In this document: positions 285-41,523 of the stretch, piece by piece | Position numbering within the stretch: position 1 is the first letter of the stretch | How the letters are laid out: every line of letters starts with the position of its first letter | Assembly (NCBI GenBank): GCA_035627515.1 | Contig: DASPLQ010000012.1 | Location: 970,331 to 1,034,330, forward strand | Reading direction: 5' to 3' | Length of the DNA stretch: 64,000 nt | Source of the DNA: Vitreimonas sp. | Lineage (GTDB): Bacteria; Patescibacteriota; Microgenomatia; UBA1400; PJMF01 | Made by a program: the position numbers and the translations under genes | The notes under the pieces: generated by a model | What the model was told of the DNA's origin: nothing | The model's database searches: none | Seen by the model: only the letters and a program-made list of their open reading frames with translations

Positions 285-305
285 AAAATTAACTTTTAAT
301 TAAAA

Positions 306-337
306 CCCCCCACTATTTTTAGTGGGGGGTTGTTTTT
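306..337 (+). terminator. Rho-independent terminator
   Basis: 9-bp stem CCCCCCACT/AGTGGGGGG with loop ATTTTT, then TTGTTTTT. Confidence 0.7.
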
Positions 338-17070: not shown

Positions 17071-17105
17071 CAAGCCCTCCGAGCTTAGCTCGGGGGGCTT
17101 TTTGT
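17071..17105 (+). terminator. Rho-independent terminator
   Basis: 11-bp stem AGCCCTCCGAG/CTCGGGGGGCT followed by TTTTTG. Confidence 0.7.
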
Positions 17106-21775: not shown

Positions 21776-23476
21776 ATGCAGTGGAAACTTAAACACACTT
21801 TATTGCCAGAAAACGTGGATGATGTGCAAGCAATTTTGCTGAGTAATCGCAGCATTGAAGATGAGCATAGTTTTTTTCAGCCGCCTGCGCCATGGGATTT
21901 AACTCTCGAAAAAGTGGGTATTAACTCTGACCAAGTGACGCAGGCGTTACAGCGCTTGGAAATTGCCCGTCAGGAACAGCAAGACATTGTCATTTTTGGT
22001 GATTATGATGCCGATGGGGTCTCCAGCACGGCCATTATGTGGGAAACCATGTCTGCGCTTGGTTTTAATGTTCGGCCCTTTATTCCCCACCGTGAAAAAC
22101 ATGGCTATGGCATGTCAGATCGATCGTTAGGTGATTTATTGGCGGGTGCCAAACCTGCCATGATTATTACTGTTGATAACGGGATTGTGGCTCATGTGCC
22201 TATTCAGCAGCTCCAAGCTCAAGGTATTGACGTCATCCTCACCGATCATCACCAACCGGAAGCTGAGCTTCCAGGGGCACACGCTATTGTCCATACTACT
22301 CAGTTATGCGGCGCTACTGTGTCATGGATTTTTAGCCGCGAGATAGCGAAACATTTTGCGCCTGCTTTGCACTTAGATCCACGCGAACTCATGACCAAAC
22401 AACTAGATTTGACGGCCATCGCTACCATTGCTGACCAGGTCCCGCTGGTAAATGCGAATCGTTCGTTCGCATTTCATGGGTTGAAGGCTTTAAAGAAAAC
22501 CAAACGGCTAGGATTGTTGGCGCTGATGGAGAAAGCCGGTATCGCCCTCGATAGTATTACGACTTCAACGGTTAATTTTGCGATTGCGCCGCGGATTAAT
22601 GCCATGGGGCGATTAGCTCACAGTTTGGAGGCGTTGCGGTTAGTGTGTACCAAAAATCATGACCGGGCACAGCAACTAGTGGAGTTACTTAATGATACTA
22701 ATACCCGGCGCCAAGATTTGACACAAGGTATGATCGAACATGCTAAAAACCAAGCGCATGTTTGGGAAGGTGAGCATTTAATTATTGTTGCTAGTGAGGA
22801 GTATCATGAAGGTGTGATTGGTTTAATTGCCGGTAAGTTGATGGAAGAGTTTTATAAACCAGCCATTGCGATTTCAATAGGACAGAAAAGTGCCAAAGCC
22901 TCCGCTCGTTCTATTCCGGGTGTTAATATCGTTGATCTTATCCGCCAAGTCAAAGATGAGCTCTTAGAGGTTGGGGGGCATCCCATGGCAGCTGGTTTCA
23001 GTGTAGAAGTAGATAAAATTGCCAATGTTTCTCGCCGTTTGTACGCTTTAGCCAAAGATCAGATTACAGCTGGTCAACTTCAACCTAGCCTGGATGTGGA
23101 GTGTTTAGTGCCGTTTGAGTTAATTTCTAAACAGTTGATAGAAGTTACGAAACGCTTAGATCCTTGTGGCCAGGGTAATCCCGAACCGGTATTTGGTTTA
23201 CAGAATGTGTGTGTCATGGACGCTTTTACCATGGGTAATAATGGTCAACACCTCAAAGTCGTGATTCAGTGTGAACAGATTCCGTTGCGAAAGCCCACCA
23301 AGGGTGGTCAGAGTAGTTCTTCCCAGACCCTCAATTGTTTGGCTTGGAATCTCGGTCACCTGGCTCAGCAACTTCTGCCAGGGACCGTCGTTGACATTGC
23401 CGGGGTAGTCGAGCTCAACGAATGGAAGGGCCGTACCTCAGTCCAGATGAAGATCAAGGATTTGGTGATAAGATGA
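21776..23476 (+). CDS. recJ: Single-stranded-DNA-specific exonuclease RecJ
   Basis: DHH family motifs VIFGDYDADGVSS and ILTDHHQP. DHHA1 region GGHPMAAG. Confidence 0.8.
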   Translation: MQWKLKHTLLPENVDDVQAILLSNRSIEDEHSFFQPPAPWDLTLEKVGINSDQVTQALQRLEIARQEQQDIVIFGDYDADGVSSTAIMWETMSALGFNVRPFIPHREKHGYGMSDRSLGDLLAGAKPAMIITVDNGIVAHVPIQQLQAQGIDVILTDHHQPEAELPGAHAIVHTTQLCGATVSWIFSREIAKHFAPALHLDPRELMTKQLDLTAIATIADQVPLVNANRSFAFHGLKALKKTKRLGLLALMEKAGIALDSITTSTVNFAIAPRINAMGRLAHSLEALRLVCTKNHDRAQQLVELLNDTNTRRQDLTQGMIEHAKNQAHVWEGEHLIIVASEEYHEGVIGLIAGKLMEEFYKPAIAISIGQKSAKASARSIPGVNIVDLIRQVKDELLEVGGHPMAAGFSVEVDKIANVSRRLYALAKDQITAGQLQPSLDVECLVPFELISKQLIEVTKRLDPCGQGNPEPVFGLQNVCVMDAFTMGNNGQHLKVVIQCEQIPLRKPTKGGQSSSSQTLNCLAWNLGHLAQQLLPGTVVDIAGVVELNEWKGRTSVQMKIKDLVIR

Positions 23477-23477
23477 G

Positions 23478-23795
23478 CTAACTAAGTCTTCCAACTGGTT
23501 CTACCGTGAGATCTTCACTAGTATCCCATGAAGATTGAGCCAGTAGTTCGTAAATGTCTTCTACACTCATTTCCACAGTATCTGCGTCAATGATGGATTT
23601 ATAAACCATGGCAGCGAGTTCTTTATCTGTCAAAATCCTTACTAACTCCATAAACTCAGAATAAACTGAATGAGAGATAGCATCAATGTTAACTTCTAAT
23701 AGATATGCCGCCAGGCTAGCAGGGTTGATTTTTTCCTTGCGATATTTTTCTTCCACCTGTCTAGCAGAAATAGTGGTTTGTCTAATATTTTCCAT
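23478..23795 (-). CDS. Small acidic hypothetical protein (105 aa); third gene of the islet operon
   Basis: RBS AAAGGA upstream. AT-rich. Confidence 0.4.
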   Translation of the reverse strand: MENIRQTTISARQVEEKYRKEKINPASLAAYLLEVNIDAISHSVYSEFMELVRILTDKELAAMVYKSIIDADTVEMSVEDIYELLAQSSWDTSEDLTVEPVGRLS

Positions 23796-23866
23796 AAAAT
23801 CCTTTTTTTTGCCCTCAAGAATTGTACAGGTTCTGTATATCTTGTGCTGACAATTACCTGACAGAA

Positions 23867-24085
23867 TTACTGGACCATCAGTGGTGCAGCGTAAGCCATT
23901 AAAGTACTAAATTCTTCAGCGGCGTCATCATATCCTTTAGTTAATAAATCGATAGTGACAGCATGATAGTCACCACCGTTAGCTTGAGTTTTGGTTAGCT
24001 CTTTTTTGTATGATTTTTCTAACAATGCTAATGCTTCTGCGGCTCCATATTGAGCAGTGGTTTGGGTTTTTACAACTTCGTACAT
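23867..24085 (-). CDS. Small hypothetical protein (72 aa), paralog of the 82-aa protein upstream
   Basis: RBS AAAGGA. Shares K..T..GGDYHAVTIDL with KKVTETGDFYAVIHEV in the neighbour. Confidence 0.4.
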   Translation of the reverse strand: MYEVVKTQTTAQYGAAEALALLEKSYKKELTKTQANGGDYHAVTIDLLTKGYDDAAEEFSTLMAYAAPLMVQ

Positions 24086-24130
24086 AGTGTCCTTTCAGGA
24101 TAATTAATTAATATTTCGACTACTTATAAA

Positions 24131-24376
24131 CTACTCCCACATAAAGGAGGGAACAGGAATTCCTACCTCAGACAACAGTTCACCAAAGATCTCCGCTTTT
24201 AGATGACTTTGATTCTTAGCAACCTCATGAATAACTGCATAAAAATCACCAGTTTCAGTAACTTTTTTATATTCTGGTGCAAACGCATTTTTTAAAGTTT
24301 GCATTGCCAAGGTATATGCCACTACATCTTTTACAAAGAATGAGGTTTCATAAGGTCTGTAGTCCTGATCTTTCAT
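24131..24376 (-). CDS. Small hypothetical protein (82 aa); first gene of the islet operon
   Basis: True start is MKDQDYRP with RBS GGAGAAAGG 6 nt upstream. The longer ORF-track call to 24481 reads through the leader and its terminator. Confidence 0.45.
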   Translation of the reverse strand: MKDQDYRPYETSFFVKDVVAYTLAMQTLKNAFAPEYKKVTETGDFYAVIHEVAKNQSHLKAEIFGELLSEVGIPVPSFMWE

Positions 24377-24532
24377 AATGTTCCTTTCTCCAACAAAAAA
24401 CCCCCCGTTTAGAGCGGGGGGTTGTGGTGTTAAATAAATGTTTACTGTTACGCTGCCACGTTTACCCCGCTCTTGGTCCAAAGGACGAAGAGTTGAATGA
24501 GGGTAATAATGCGGCCAAAGTGTGCCATAACA
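24377..24532 (-). promoter_or_regulatory. 5' leader with an intrinsic terminator and an alternative antiterminator; candidate riboswitch or attenuator
   Basis: On the minus-strand RNA the terminator is CCCCCCG-CUCUAAA-CGGGGGG followed by UUUUUUGUU, just upstream of the RBS. Upstream AGAGCGGGG (+24465..24473) is perfectly complementary over 9 nt to CCCCGCUCU in the terminator 5' strand and loop. Confidence 0.45.
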
Positions 24533-24538
24533 AAATAT

Positions 24539-24566
24539 ATTGTATGCCGTGACGCGGCGATGTCAA
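24539..24566 (-). promoter_or_regulatory. Sigma70-like promoter: TTGACA, 16-nt spacer, TACAAT
   Basis: Reverse complement of +24561..24566 is TTGACA and of +24539..24544 is TACAAT. Drives the leader and small-gene operon. Confidence 0.5.
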
Positions 24567-24629
24567 CAGGTAAGTACTAAATGTGTATGAATTGACAGAT
24601 ATATCTTTAGAAAGTGAGGTGTATAATAG

Positions 24630-24822
24630 CTTTAGTTAATACAAGCGCATGAGCCTACTGACACTAGGCAATTTCCTAAGAGGAAGCGCTGCCAGGGGTA
24701 GCAACCTGGCCGGGTAAGCCCGTGACAGCAGGAAGTAAGTATAAAGAGGTTGGCACCTTTCTGAGCTCCAGAAGCCTTTTCTTAATTCAAGTACAGTCTT
24801 GGGTTGGGAAAAGGCTTTTTTA
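24630..24822 (+). ncRNA. Candidate structured RNA of about 190 nt, possibly SRP RNA (ffs)-like; alternatively a cis-acting aspS leader
   Basis: TATAAT at 24622..24627. Hairpin UUCC-UAAGA-GGAA followed by GCGCUGCCAGG resembles SRP domain IV UCC-GGAA-GGAAGCAGCCAAGG. Ends in an intrinsic terminator (stem AGCCUUUUC/GAAAAGGCU at 24773..24816, then UUUUU). Not verifiable without a covariance model. Confidence 0.35.
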
Positions 24823-24850
24823 GTATTTTAATCAATTACCAGGAGACGCC

Positions 24851-26725
24851 ATGTCTGATCAGACACGAACCTTTATAAGCGCTAGTCCCTCTAGTGTGGG
24901 CCAGGAAATTTTGCTTCAAGGCTGGGTAGATACCAAACGCGATCACGGTAAAGTCACGTTTATAGATTTGCGTGATCACACCGGGGTGGTCCAGTGTGTG
25001 GGTTACAAGATGATGGGTGAAGTCACCACCGAGTCAGTGGTGGAGCTGGTGGGTTTAGTCAAAGAACGCCCTGCCAACATGGTCAATGACAAAATTGTCA
25101 CCGGAGGAATCGAGATAGAGGTTAAATCTTATACCGTGCTCAACAAAGCTAAAGAACTGCCAATTACTCTTGATAGTGATGGCAAAGATATTGGTGAAGA
25201 AGCGCGTTTAAAGTATCGTTACCTTGACTTACGACGGCCTCGAATGCAACAGATTGTAAAATTGCGGTCGGATTACTTCCGAGCCTTGCGTACTGCTCTC
25301 TATGAACGAGAGTTCACTGAAGTCGAAACGCCGATGCTGACCAAATCTACCAAAGAGGGTGCCCGAGACTTCATCGTACCATCACGGTTTCAACCTGGTA
25401 AATTTTATGCGCTACCACAAAGTCCGCAGCAATATAAACAGTTGTTAATGACTGCTGGCGTATATCGCTACTTTCAGTTTGCACGCTGCATCCGCGACGA
25501 GGACTTGCGCGCTGATCGCGGGTTTGAGTTCACGCAACTGGATGTAGAGCTGAGTTTTGCTAAACAAGATGAGGTGATGCAGACAATTGAGGATGTAGTC
25601 AAGCAAGCTGTTAAAACGGTAGGTGGGAAATTGAAAGATGAAACCTTCCCGGTGGTGGATTATGCAGATGCTATCAAAAAATATGGAGCTGATCGTTTCG
25701 ATTTGCGGACCGAAGCTGAGAAACAAGATGGGACCTTAGCTTTTGCATGGGTAGTGAACTTTCCGTTCTTCAAAAAAGTCGATAAAGGTGACATTGCTGA
25801 AGTGCGTGATGGCAAGAGTGGCTGGACTTTCACCCATAATCCTTTCAGTGCGCCGTTACCGGAGCACGAGGAGTGGTTATTAAAGGGCGAAAACGTGGGC
25901 GAGATCTTAACTACGCAGTACGACTTGGTTTGTAATGGGTATGAAGTAGGTGGCGGCAGTATCAGAGCTCACAAGCCAGAGTTATTAAAAGCCACGTTTA
26001 AAGTCATGGGATATGGTGATCAGGAAATTGAGGACAGCGTGGGACACATGTTAGAAGCGTTTAGTGTGGGTACACCACCTCATGGTGGGTTGGCACTAGG
26101 CTTAGATCGCTTAATCATGTTGTTAGCGGGGGAAACCTCACTCAAAGAAACGATTGCTTTTCCAATGAGCTCTACTGGTCGCACCGCGGTCATGGACGCC
26201 CCCAGCCCTGTCGCCGAAGAACAACTTCAGGAGTTAGGTTTGAGCATTCGAGCTCCTCAGGGTCAACAGACGCCCCACGACTTTATTTTAGATCTCCTCA
26301 AGAAACACCACGTGGAGTATCAGTATCTAGAACATGAACCAGTCACTACTAGCCAAGAGGCTGCTCGGGTTCGAGGTGGTAAGGAACAAGAAGGTGCCAA
26401 GGCATTGGTGATGCAAGCTGATAAAGAGTTTGTGCTGTATGTCCTGCCTGGTGATCAGCGCGCCGATTTAGCTGCCTTCCAAAAGCACCTGGGTGTGAAG
26501 AAGTTAGCGATGGCGTCTACTGATTCTGTCTATCAACGCACCGGTTTGAAAGTAGGCTCCATTCCGCCCTTTGGGTCTTCGATCAAAATGAAAACCTATG
26601 TCGATAGCCGACTGGCTGCCAACGAACAGATTGCCTTCAACGTTGGCCGGCATGATCGATCGGTGATCATGAAGTATGCCGACTATGTAGCGGTGGAAAA
26701 ACCAGAAGTAGTGAATATTGGCTAA
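24851..26725 (+). CDS. aspS: Aspartyl-tRNA synthetase, bacterial type but lacking the GAD insertion, fused to a C-terminal YbaK/ProX-like aminoacyl-tRNA deacylase domain
   Basis: RBS AGGAG. N-terminal OB domain. Motif 2 FYALPQSPQQYKQLLM...FARCIRDEDLRADR. Motif 3 GGGSIRAHK...GLALGLDRLIMLL. Bacterial C-terminus ETIAFPMSSTGRTAVMDAPSPV. An extra ~155 aa: EHEPVTTSQEAARVRG...ALVMQADKEFVLYVLPGDQRADL...GLKVGSIPPFG. Confidence 0.85.
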   Translation: MSDQTRTFISASPSSVGQEILLQGWVDTKRDHGKVTFIDLRDHTGVVQCVGYKMMGEVTTESVVELVGLVKERPANMVNDKIVTGGIEIEVKSYTVLNKAKELPITLDSDGKDIGEEARLKYRYLDLRRPRMQQIVKLRSDYFRALRTALYEREFTEVETPMLTKSTKEGARDFIVPSRFQPGKFYALPQSPQQYKQLLMTAGVYRYFQFARCIRDEDLRADRGFEFTQLDVELSFAKQDEVMQTIEDVVKQAVKTVGGKLKDETFPVVDYADAIKKYGADRFDLRTEAEKQDGTLAFAWVVNFPFFKKVDKGDIAEVRDGKSGWTFTHNPFSAPLPEHEEWLLKGENVGEILTTQYDLVCNGYEVGGGSIRAHKPELLKATFKVMGYGDQEIEDSVGHMLEAFSVGTPPHGGLALGLDRLIMLLAGETSLKETIAFPMSSTGRTAVMDAPSPVAEEQLQELGLSIRAPQGQQTPHDFILDLLKKHHVEYQYLEHEPVTTSQEAARVRGGKEQEGAKALVMQADKEFVLYVLPGDQRADLAAFQKHLGVKKLAMASTDSVYQRTGLKVGSIPPFGSSIKMKTYVDSRLAANEQIAFNVGRHDRSVIMKYADYVAVEKPEVVNIG

Positions 26726-39882: not shown

Positions 39883-41523
39883 TTAAGGTGAGTTTGAAGT
39901 AACTTCACCTGAAGGTGTACTTTGATGAGCTAACTCTGTGATATCCCAGACTTGTAAACACGGAGCTTGATTGGGTCGGCAGATGTTTAGCAAGCGCTGC
40001 GAGGGATCTAGTTTTAGATCCAAACGATGGGAGTTAACGACTAATAACACTTGATCAAATTGGCGGGCGCGCTGTTTGAAATTTTCCGGAATGAAGCGCA
40101 CTGGTTGCCCGATACCATCAATAAAAATATTACTTACGTCACGACGATGAAAATACAAGGTCAAACCATCTGGTAAAGTTCCAAAGTAACCTTCCGTAGC
40201 AACAGCTACGGTGTGATCCTGAGATAACGACCGAATTAAAGCCGCGGTTTCTAGTAAACCGTGTCCTGAAGACCATTCATGGAGATATTGAACTTTGTCA
40301 GCTGCCACAAAGGGGGTGGCGTTGGAACTGAAGAGTGCAGGTAACATGAAGTAAAGTGAGGTCATGACCACTTGAGTACACAAGACAGTGACTAGTAATC
40401 CCCCGACTGCTTTTCGAGCAATGTTTCGTGGCTGATTAATGAAACTATCAACAAGGTCTTGAAAGGCTAGTGCGCCAGCCAAAGTAAAAAATAAACTTAC
40501 TGGCATAAAATAGCGGGGATAAACAACTTTACCTAAAAGGGCAATCGGCAAGATAAATGACAGAGCAGACCAAAACAGTAAATGATAGGTTTTTTGGTGA
40601 CGCTTAATAAACAGCCCCGCGACGCTTAATAACAACAGACTAACGCTCAAGTAATGGTAAAAGTATGAAATATAGGTGGAAAAATTGGTGATGGTTTGTT
40701 GCCATTTACCATCAAACACCACTTCTCGCCAAGGATAAAGAAAATCACTGCCACGACTAAATAATTGACTGAAGACGGGAGAAATTTTAAGTGAGGCAAA
40801 AATGACAATGCCTATGCCGGCTGCCACCATCATTTTGGCTAAGAGTACGAGGCGGCTCGACCACGATACTTTCTCTGCCCACCCCGCCCACAATACAAAG
40901 AGTGGTGCAAATAAAATAGCTGGAACCTTGGTCCACAGGCTGAAACCAAAACACACACCAGTCATCGCTATCCAGCCTATGCTGATTCGATCAAAAGTGG
41001 CCACAATAACCTGGACGCTTTTTTTAGACAATGATAATGCTACTGAAGCATGGTGTCCCTGATGGTGATCAGCTAATTTAATCAGACCTACTAAAAGTAA
41101 GCTTAACCAGAGCGTCAATAACCCATCGATGAGGGCCATCCGGTGATGGAAAAACCAGAAAGGCAATATCACAGTGAAGATCATGCCTAGCAGTTGGGTT
41201 TTAGGGCGAGCTTGGAGCAATGATAACAAATATCCCATCACCCCCACCTGCAGAAGGCCAACAGCTACTGAAACAAAACGAGCAGCCCACAATTGATCAG
41301 CAAAGAGATACTGAAAAGGAATTAACAACCACATGAATAATGGTGTTTTGCCATCATTCATTGGGAAAAATAAGTAACGTTGCCAGTCATCAATAATCAG
41401 TTGAGACCAGCGAATATAAATGGCTTCATCAGCAAAGACAGGTAAAGCAGTAAGGTTAATGAGGTGTGTCACTAGATAAATGACAGCAATTAACCCAAAG
41501 ATAGACAGAGAGGCTCTTTTCAC
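39883..41523 (-). CDS. GT-C membrane glycosyltransferase, ArnT/PMT-like (GT39/GT83 family)
   Basis: About 11 transmembrane helices and a C-terminal soluble domain. First-loop DE motif LPVFADEAIYIRW. Confidence 0.6.
   Translation of the reverse strand: MKRASLSIFGLIAVIYLVTHLINLTALPVFADEAIYIRWSQLIIDDWQRYLFFPMNDGKTPLFMWLLIPFQYLFADQLWAARFVSVAVGLLQVGVMGYLLSLLQARPKTQLLGMIFTVILPFWFFHHRMALIDGLLTLWLSLLLVGLIKLADHHQGHHASVALSLSKKSVQVIVATFDRISIGWIAMTGVCFGFSLWTKVPAILFAPLFVLWAGWAEKVSWSSRLVLLAKMMVAAGIGIVIFASLKISPVFSQLFSRGSDFLYPWREVVFDGKWQQTITNFSTYISYFYHYLSVSLLLLSVAGLFIKRHQKTYHLLFWSALSFILPIALLGKVVYPRYFMPVSLFFTLAGALAFQDLVDSFINQPRNIARKAVGGLLVTVLCTQVVMTSLYFMLPALFSSNATPFVAADKVQYLHEWSSGHGLLETAALIRSLSQDHTVAVATEGYFGTLPDGLTLYFHRRDVSNIFIDGIGQPVRFIPENFKQRARQFDQVLLVVNSHRLDLKLDPSQRLLNICRPNQAPCLQVWDITELAHQSTPSGEVTSNSP

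Follow-up and report, generated by a model that had tools for sequence, protein, structure and literature searches.

The closest described systems to the element reported here are the enterobacterial attenuators (trpL, pheL, hisL, leuL, thrL and ilv). In these systems, a strong promoter is followed by a leader of approximately 140-160 nucleotides (nt), whose region 1 is overlapped by a short open reading frame (ORF), the helices 1:2, 2:3 and 3:4 are mutually exclusive, and the 3:4 helix is an intrinsic terminator located just before the first structural gene; termination is the default outcome both without translation of the ORF and when it is translated to its end. We describe a leader that shares this anatomy, and in our model the default outcome as well, in a window of 64,000 nt of DNA (contig DASPLQ010000012.1 of assembly GCA_035627515.1, forward-strand positions 970,331 to 1,034,330; the coordinates below are those of the window). 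There, between recJ and aspS, a minus-strand unit (hereafter the islet) consists of a promoter, a leader of approximately 140-155 nt and three small ORFs (ORF1 to ORF3). The leader would work like the amino-acid operon leaders, but it is not a member of them: the mechanism is common and the homology is not (14-20 bits, compared with thresholds of 41-55). Our best reading is that the leader is a ribosome-mediated (leader-peptide), promoter-proximal transcription attenuator, a reading that we hold tentatively and with somewhat less than even confidence; that it is a conditional terminator, whatever its sensor, seems probable.

Several features set the locus apart from the enterobacterial attenuators. 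The leader ORF has no Shine-Dalgarno (SD) sequence and needs leaderless translation, or translation from a 3-nt leader; it contains no tandem regulatory codon, although its Ile/Leu/Val/Thr-rich stretch is loosely similar to those of the ilv leaders; its stop codon follows region 2 rather than preceding it; and the genes that follow encode three orphan acidic proteins instead of a biosynthetic operon.

Leaders that respond to antibiotics or translation stress (ermC-type and cat leaders, and the transcriptional bmrCD and vmlR leaders) form a second point of comparison, in that stalling within a short hydrophobic leader peptide rearranges the hairpins and the regulated genes are not biosynthetic. 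Here, too, a short hydrophobic peptide precedes non-biosynthetic genes, but there is no resistance gene downstream. The LFVL of the peptide is superficially like the IFVI of ErmCL; a stall at P-site codon 16, however, led to termination and not to read-through in our model. The type of expression platform is also shared with terminator/antiterminator riboswitches and T-box leaders, whereas in the leader we recognised neither an aptamer nor a Stem I, a specifier loop or a T-box sequence.

A further parallel comes from mycobacteria, where leaderless short ORFs (LL-sORFs) with polycysteine tracts are reported to be ribosome-sensing attenuators (Canestrari et al., bioRxiv 10.1101/834739). As we propose for our leader, the LL-sORF is a ribosome-pausing sensor at the 5' end of a polycistronic transcript, and the share of leaderless mRNAs given there for the mycobacterial host (a quarter) is comparable to the approximately 24% of long ORFs in our window that look leaderless. 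However, the LL-sORFs of that report unmask a downstream ribosome-binding site and act on translation, whereas the present leader ends in an intrinsic transcription terminator and lacks both a Cys tract and a link to a metabolic pathway (10.1101/834739).

The elements of the leader, its competing folds with their energies and the position of its ORF were computed from the DNA, and are listed here in the order of transcription:

24561..24566, minus strand: -35 hexamer TTGACA, a perfect match
24539..24544, minus strand: -10 hexamer TACAAT, separated from the -35 hexamer by a 16-nt spacer
24531, minus strand: predicted transcription start, a G at the eighth nt past the -10 hexamer, which is the usual -10-to-start distance
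24446..24532, minus strand: 5' hairpin (1:2, anti-antiterminator), leader nt 1-87, -28.3 kcal/mol
24448..24528, minus strand: leader ORF of 26 codons, ATG to TAA, MAHFGRIITLIQLFVLWTKSGVNVAA, with its ATG 10 nt past the -10 hexamer and no SD sequence
24465..24473, minus strand: 5' strand of the antiterminator (region 2), AGAGCGGGG, forming nine perfect pairs
24411..24419, minus strand: 3' strand of the antiterminator (region 3), CCCCGCUCU, overlapping the 5' arm and loop of the terminator
24392..24423, minus strand: intrinsic terminator with a 9-bp stem (7 G-C pairs), a 7-nt loop and a U6GUU tail
24382..24391, minus strand: ribosome-binding site of ORF1, GGAGAAAGGA, directly 3' of the U6GUU tail

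An earlier reading of this DNA, made from the sequence only, had proposed a near-consensus promoter, and TTGACA-16-TACAAT is indeed present on the minus strand. It is the sole promoter match of at least 11/12 positions in the whole window. Given that shuffled sequences contained a mean of 1.6 such matches per window by chance, the promoter is informative by its placement alone, namely in non-coding DNA directly 5' of a structured leader. Its full -35 hexamer also distinguishes it from most promoters of the window, which appear to consist of a -10 hexamer only. The start position follows from the sequence of the promoter, and any position in 24533..24528 is possible.

The terminator stem-loop, AACCCCCCG-CTCTAAA-CGGGGGGTT at 24423..24399, is followed by T6 GTT and has a folding energy of -16.6 kcal/mol; as RNA it reads AACCCCCCG-CUCUAAA-CGGGGGGUU, followed by U6GUU. 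We thus confirmed the strong terminator that had been described immediately 5' of the first gene's ribosome-binding site. This site is partly paired in an extended fold of the terminator, and there is no space between the terminator and ORF1 for another promoter. Since the ribosome-binding site abuts the terminator tail, ORF1 has no promoter of its own.

In the 60 kb that were scanned, four strong terminator-like sites were found, including that of the leader. Two lie at gene ends (304..331 and 17072..17100, both on the plus strand) and two before genes (those of this leader and of the aspS leader). The terminator at 304..331 (AACCCCCC-ACTATTTTTAGT-GGGGGGTT) has a C6/G6 stem in the style of the leader terminator, and approximately 300 nt of non-coding DNA, in which a TTGACA occurs, separate it from the next gene, which begins at 637.

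We next consider the pairing that competes with the terminator. Upstream of it, AGAGCGGGG perfectly complements CCCCGCTCT (DNA, 24419..24411), which comprises 5 nt of the terminator's 5' arm plus 4 nt of its loop. The proposal of a 9-nt upstream complement to the 5' half of the terminator, with two mutually exclusive structures, was therefore correct. We shuffled the 109 nt that precede the terminator 20,000 times, preserving dinucleotides. Perfect complements of 9 nt or longer, to a stretch with at least 4 nt of the 5' arm, were seen in 0.18% of these shuffles (P = 0.0018). The energy of the observed duplex, -19.7 kcal/mol, was equalled or bettered in 10 of 3000 shuffles, and the 2:3 segment folded alone gave -20.9 kcal/mol (z = -3.5), as good a value being reached by none of 200 shuffles. 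This alternative pairing thus appears to be more than chance, although the tests were made post hoc.

These results bear on a competing explanation, in which no switch exists: the leader would be a free-standing small peptide gene or small RNA (sRNA), ORF1 to ORF3 would be expressed by constitutive leak-through or from weak internal -10 hexamers, and the complement would be coincidental. A strong promoter with a strong terminator approximately 140 nt further on is likewise how an sRNA gene or the gene of a small protein is built, an 11/12 promoter match is expected by chance in a window of this size, and a possible -10 hexamer does precede ORF3. However, the complement has a probability of approximately 0.002 and falls exactly on the 5' arm of the terminator, the two competing folds are isoenergetic when the choice between them is made (see below), and the ribosome-binding site of ORF1 abuts the U6GUU tail in the absence of a promoter of its own. 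We therefore regard this explanation as unlikely.

The pattern AGAGCGGGG-N30-60-CCCCGCTCT was also sought in the DNA of viral contigs, where it gave 16 matches, none of which continued into a terminator. The pattern is also its own reverse complement, and on both grounds these matches are chance inverted repeats. No further copies of the leader were found in the window or in the loci that we fetched.

The 5' part of the leader forms a third structure. The 5' hairpin pairs CUCUU with AAGAG and UUACCCU with GGGGUAA, and in this way sequesters the antiterminator strand; its basal helix joins the start-codon and stop-codon regions of the leader ORF. Its folding is better than that of shuffled sequences (z = -2.3; 2 of 200 shuffles fold equally well), as is that of the whole leader (z = -3.1), and the minimum-energy fold of the leader keeps AGAGCGGGG paired, not free. 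Folding of successive prefixes indicated that the hairpin forms once it has been transcribed, while nt 1-58 alone fold weakly. In the competing antiterminator fold as predicted, the two strands flank a 5-nt bulge, a 4-bp helix and a 28-nt loop. The folding check thus bore out the two exclusive folds, but the two-state picture was incomplete, since the hairpin is a third structure.

The balance between these folds changes with the length of the transcript. At 124 nt, when region 3 has emerged and region 4 is not yet made, the hairpin (-28.3 kcal/mol) and the antiterminator (-28.6 kcal/mol) are isoenergetic. The barriers along the direct path, which are upper-bound estimates, are approximately 19.6 kcal/mol between the hairpin and the antiterminator and 19.5 kcal/mol between the antiterminator and the terminator. 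Once the full terminator is present and nothing is bound, its probability is 1.0. An equilibrium two-state model therefore fails, as the terminator always wins when it is whole, and the kinetic version alone is tenable. In the folding model, the leader is a kinetic switch that would retain whichever fold forms first and would be OFF by default, turning ON only if region 1 stayed unpaired during the emergence of region 3.

Such a platform, composed of a terminator, an antiterminator and an anti-antiterminator, is also found in many riboswitches. This introduces the question of whether the leader could be a metabolite or ion riboswitch of a new class, in which the 5' hairpin is the aptamer and either keeps hold of the antiterminator strand once the ligand is bound (ligand = OFF) or frees that strand when disrupted. 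The downstream genes have no known function, so any ligand is possible. However, the 5' domain is one irregular hairpin without a multi-helix junction or a signal of a pseudoknot; riboswitch classes normally recur, whereas the leader occurs as a single copy in the window and in the collections searched; and the ORF that coincides with the hairpin is better accounted for by the sensing of translation. Searches of the 156-nt leader against the riboswitch families of Rfam, at E-values of up to 10 and with the most permissive filters, gave no match. At gathering thresholds, the whole window yielded a tRNA-Gln only, and permissive scans of 23300..25000 and of the 156-nt leader gave sub-threshold matches only, most of them to sRNAs and amino-acid leaders. 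Among these, the Thr_, Phe_, Trp_, Leu_ and His_leader models scored 14.1-20.6 bits against gathering scores of 41-55, and the amino-acid leader matches are apparently carried by the terminator hairpin. No family thus reached the threshold in the Rfam/Infernal check of the riboswitch proposal. What remains of the riboswitch/attenuator signature that had been claimed is the terminator with its exclusive antiterminator; a ligand-binding aptamer was not recognised. We consider a riboswitch improbable, and the 5' hairpin together with the coincident 26-codon ORF leads us to favour the leader-peptide attenuator over it.

A slightly less probable alternative, and again an improbable one, is antitermination by a trans-acting factor, in which an RNA-binding protein (possibly through autoregulation by ORF1, ORF2 or ORF3), a tRNA or an sRNA would open the hairpin or stabilise 2:3. 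The three-state architecture is compatible with this idea, a UGGC is located between the antiterminator strands, and the use of tRNA-sensing leaders is suggested by the T-box-like leader of aspS, which lies 100 nt away on the other strand. However, ORF1 to ORF3 have no recognisable RNA-binding domain, no domain resembling Stem I or a specifier was seen, and searches of the leader gave no family or repeat of the T-box, RAT, ANTAR, PyrR or TRAP-like kinds. As a candidate in its own right, a T-box was rejected: nt 1-58 form no Stem I of their own, there is no match to RF00230, and the UGG is paired in the predicted antiterminator fold, where a T-box would have a 7-nt UGGN bulge. RAT and ANTAR readings lacked their defining parts.

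We return to the leader-peptide attenuator and to the position and coding properties of its putative leader ORF. The ORF spans the 5' hairpin and stops at its 3' foot. Depending on where transcription starts, the ORF would be leaderless or, with a start at the G at 24531, have a 3-nt 5' untranslated region (UTR). In shuffled sequences, an ATG 6-11 nt past the -10 hexamer with an ORF stopping between regions 1 and 3 occurred in 1.9% of cases. To place this in context, we looked at the starts of the 46 long ORFs of the window. A match of at least 5/6 to TATAAT lies 6-9 nt before the start codon in 11 of them, against a background of approximately 0.5 per position, while an SD sequence is present in 10 (22%). 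Leaderless mRNAs thus appear to be common in the window, at approximately 24% of the long ORFs as judged from these motifs. Candidate leaderless starts include 11418, 28887, 36262, 39883-41523(-), 41582 and 46218, and their -35 boxes are mostly poor.

The effect of a ribosome on the leader was modelled by masking the 124-nt transcript. With the P-site at codons 1-15 the full antiterminator formed, and at codons 16-25 none formed. Codons 7-16 of the leader peptide encode I-I-T-L-I-Q-L-F-V-L, with three Ile, three Leu, one Val and one Thr, and this Ile/Leu/Val/Thr-rich stretch coincides with the zone in which a stall at the A-site would give read-through. The codon usage score of the leader ORF (0.95) lies below that of every gene here (minimum 1.02), and its GC content at third codon positions (GC3) is 0.65 compared with 0.41. 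Poor codon usage and a GC3 of 0.65 are to be expected of a sequence that is shaped by RNA pairing and not by the peptide it encodes.

The peptide itself is hydrophobic and basic, with a grand average of hydropathicity (GRAVY) of +1.07 and an isoelectric point (pI) of 11, which is in line with a small peptide gene and hence with the absence of a switch. However, its hydrophobic run of approximately 11-14 residues is interrupted by R, T and Q and is short for a membrane helix. A type I toxin or small membrane peptide was considered and rejected, given that there is no full transmembrane stretch, no SD sequence and no promoter-like site on the opposite strand.

Based on these results, we propose the following course of events for the leader-peptide attenuator, in which the translation of the leader ORF and the nature of the signal are what we infer. 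Transcription would begin approximately 7-8 nt after TACAAT, and the first 87 nt would fold as the 1:2 hairpin, tying up AAGAGCGGGGUAA. The 3:4 terminator would then form and transcription would stop approximately 140 nt in, before the ribosome-binding site of ORF1, which would make OFF the default state. If region 1 were held single-stranded, region 2 would instead pair with CCCCGCUCU to form 2:3, so that the terminator would lose its 5' arm, and read-through would give ORF1 and ORF2, plus ORF3 unless the latter uses its own -10 hexamer. The sensor would most likely be a ribosome translating the leaderless or near-leaderless ORF of 26 codons. A ribosome in codons 1-15 would cover region 1 and leave region 2 free, resulting in read-through, while one in codons 16-25 would cover region 2 and cause termination, as would the lack of any ribosome. 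The signal would be slow translation, perhaps owing to a shortage of Ile/Leu or to translation stress.

Several points weigh against this attenuator. All of the statistics were calculated after the features had been noticed. At equilibrium, the terminator dominates even with the ribosome masks (probability of the antiterminator, at most 0.05), so that the model rests wholly on co-transcriptional kinetics. A mask at codon 26 or at the stop codon frees region 2, and the antiterminator forms again. The gap between the -10 hexamer and the leader ATG is 10 nt, while the 11 leaderless-like genes have gaps of 6-9 nt; an SD sequence is lacking, and the best purine start leaves a 5' UTR of 3 nt. In the trp, his, leu and Cys leaders a single codon is repeated in tandem, which is not the case for this peptide, and the downstream genes are not biosynthetic, which makes the sensed signal a guess. 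In addition, no homologous leader or protein was found in genome, metagenome, viral, phage or plasmid collections, and there is thus no comparative support.

The genes that the leader would control, and a second possible promoter element, are the following:

24131..24376, minus strand: ORF1, 81 residues (82 codons including the stop), predicted to be helical, pI 5.1
23867..24085, minus strand: ORF2, 72 residues, with its own AAGGA site, pI 4.7
23478..23795, minus strand: ORF3, 105 residues, with its own AAGGA site, pI 4.4
23821..23826, minus strand: possible internal -10 hexamer TACAAT, 25 nt before ORF3

Through this internal -10 hexamer, judged by its sequence, ORF3 may also be transcribed independently of the leader. 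The sequence-only reading had given sizes of 82, 72 and 105 residues; the latter two stand, but the first protein has 81 residues, the figure of 82 being that of its codons with the stop included. A longer call of 116 residues had been dismissed as an artefact, and we agree, since it traverses the terminator and bypasses the GGAG/AAGGA site before the ATG at 24376, and the NCBI annotation gives 81 residues. The ORFs are annotated in the source metagenome-assembled genome (MAG) as VD999_05150, VD999_05145 and VD999_05140.

ORF1 and ORF2 had also been called paralogous. They do share a core, GDFYAVI in ORF1 and GDYHAVT in ORF2, but the similarity is weak (p approximately 0.04): BLASTP aligned 37 residues with an E-value of 0.042, the local alignment score of 36 (shuffle mean 25.6, standard deviation 5.0) was reached in 80 of 2000 shuffles, and identity in a MAFFT alignment was 25%; a few further identities flank the core. 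ORF3 is similar to neither. Run without alignments, AlphaFold2 predicted helical structures at low confidence, with a predicted local distance difference test (pLDDT) score of 63 for ORF1 and 55 for ORF3.

That none of the three genes is recognisable was borne out by protein, profile and viral and phage searches. For each of ORF1 to ORF3, a word-indexed search of 5.8 billion proteins returned the query itself alone, as did a full HMMER search of 1.84 billion representatives with ORF1. Nothing significant was found for the three proteins in Pfam, PHROGs, NCBIfam, PADLOC or the sequences of the PDB, and nothing was found in viral contigs (ORF1 and ORF3) or by tblastn in a phage collection (ORF1). 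The DNA of the islet gave no blastn match in phage and plasmid collections.

Such results might also be expected if the islet were non-functional debris, that is, an AT-rich recent insertion or fast-decaying DNA whose elements are unused. Three singleton proteins among billions of sequences, structure predictions of low confidence (pLDDT 63 and 55), a GC3 approximately 2.4 standard deviations under the gene mean and a closest relative that differs at the same spot are all in keeping with this view. On the other hand, the three ORFs, with 81, 72 and 105 codons, follow one another on the same strand, and open frames of such length are unlikely in DNA of 37-39% GC, as estimated from base composition. 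An AAGGA site lies 4-6 nt from the ATG of each ORF, compared with SD sequences at 22% of the long ORFs of the window; given that internal cistrons cannot be leaderless, SD sites on the ORFs of the islet make sense. The codon usage scores of the three ORFs (1.06-1.17) are within the range of native genes, compared with a value of 1.10 +/- 0.03, and the leader folds better than shuffled sequences do. Based on the ribosome-binding sites and native-like codon usage, ORF1 to ORF3 are probably real genes, and we consider debris very unlikely.

The islet lies between the following two genes:

21776..23476, plus strand: recJ (TIGR00644, E = 2e-132)
24851..26725, plus strand: aspS (NCBIfam match)

In agreement with the description of the small ORFs as AT-rich, the GC content of the islet is 34-39%, compared with 44-50% in the flanks, and its GC3 is 0.29-0.31, compared with a gene mean of 0.41 (approximately 2.4 standard deviations lower). 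Such a low GC3 is consistent with either recent acquisition or rapid evolution. On its distal side, recJ and ORF3 are convergent, their stops being 1 nt apart (23476..23480), and no terminator was seen between these stops. Transcripts of the islet would therefore enter recJ in the antisense direction, and transcripts of recJ would likewise enter the islet.

To compare this locus with those of relatives, we searched contigs from genomes and metagenomes with RecJ, and the nearest relatives were just 52-55% identical. In the nearest genome found (L001), RecJ is 54% identical and recJ is also beside aspS, but the spacer between them (L001 7648..9008) holds a single minus-strand ORF of 352 residues in place of the islet, with a faint signal of a DUF294 nucleotidyltransferase. 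The metagenome scan revealed no closer relative with usable flanks, and L001 was the sole usable one. On this sequence comparison, the recJ-aspS spacer (23477..24850) is a variable spot, and the islet is its putative lineage-specific cargo.

We also searched the islet for insertion scars and found none above chance level. As candidate boundaries of a mobile element, a 13-nt imperfect inverted repeat (23390-23402 and 24555-24567) was at chance expectation, and two direct repeats of 11-12 nt were likewise at chance level. Readings of the islet as an integron cassette or a retron were rejected because their defining parts are lacking.

The label of the source MAG, 'Vitreimonas sp.' (Alphaproteobacteria), looks unreliable. 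It is a poor fit with the 44% GC and the 1.41-Mb contig, and it is also ill-matched by the many proteins without an NCBIfam match and by the identity of 52-55% to the nearest RecJ.

If the leader-peptide attenuator is real, then a leader ORF that is itself leaderless can drive transcription attenuation of the classical three-hairpin type, outside amino-acid biosynthesis operons and in a lineage known only from metagenomes, and this attenuation would gate three orphan micro-proteins in the variable recJ-aspS spot. Read-through that depends on conditions would then offer a handle on when the orphan genes are used. A bolder claim, which we think improbable to the same degree as a riboswitch, is that the leader represents a sensory RNA of a kind not seen before, be it a riboswitch of a new class or an attenuator with a leaderless ORF that senses Ile/Leu or translation stress. 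It would switch on small acidic proteins that are lineage-specific, in bacteria that are poorly sampled and have an apparently small genome. If this were true, it would suggest orphan micro-proteins induced by starvation or stress as the regulated module. As it stands, the leader is a single unconserved instance, and its value is mainly that of a testable construct of approximately 190 bp, not that of a discovery.

Finally, several observations were made on the neighbouring aspS gene. It is preceded by a structured leader (24655..24830, plus strand) that ends in a hairpin and a T-run (24772..24817). This leader is conserved in L001 (8826..8990, plus strand), where 11 of 38 predicted pairs are retained through changes on both sides. 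It contains a T-box-like motif, AGAGGUUGGCACC, whose UGGC would presumably fit the GCCA end of tRNA-Asp, and a possible specifier, GAC-A at 24724..24727, which is CAC-A in L001. No Rfam T-box was reported in the aspS leader, even at E-values of up to 10. The product of aspS (AspRS) carries at its C-terminus (residues 481-623; 26291..26725) a YbaK/EbsC-like (Cys-tRNA(Pro) deacylase) domain (TIGR00011, E = 6e-20), which is absent from the 470-residue AspRS of L001, and the NCBIfam models of bacterial AspRS match the aspS product in two stretches.

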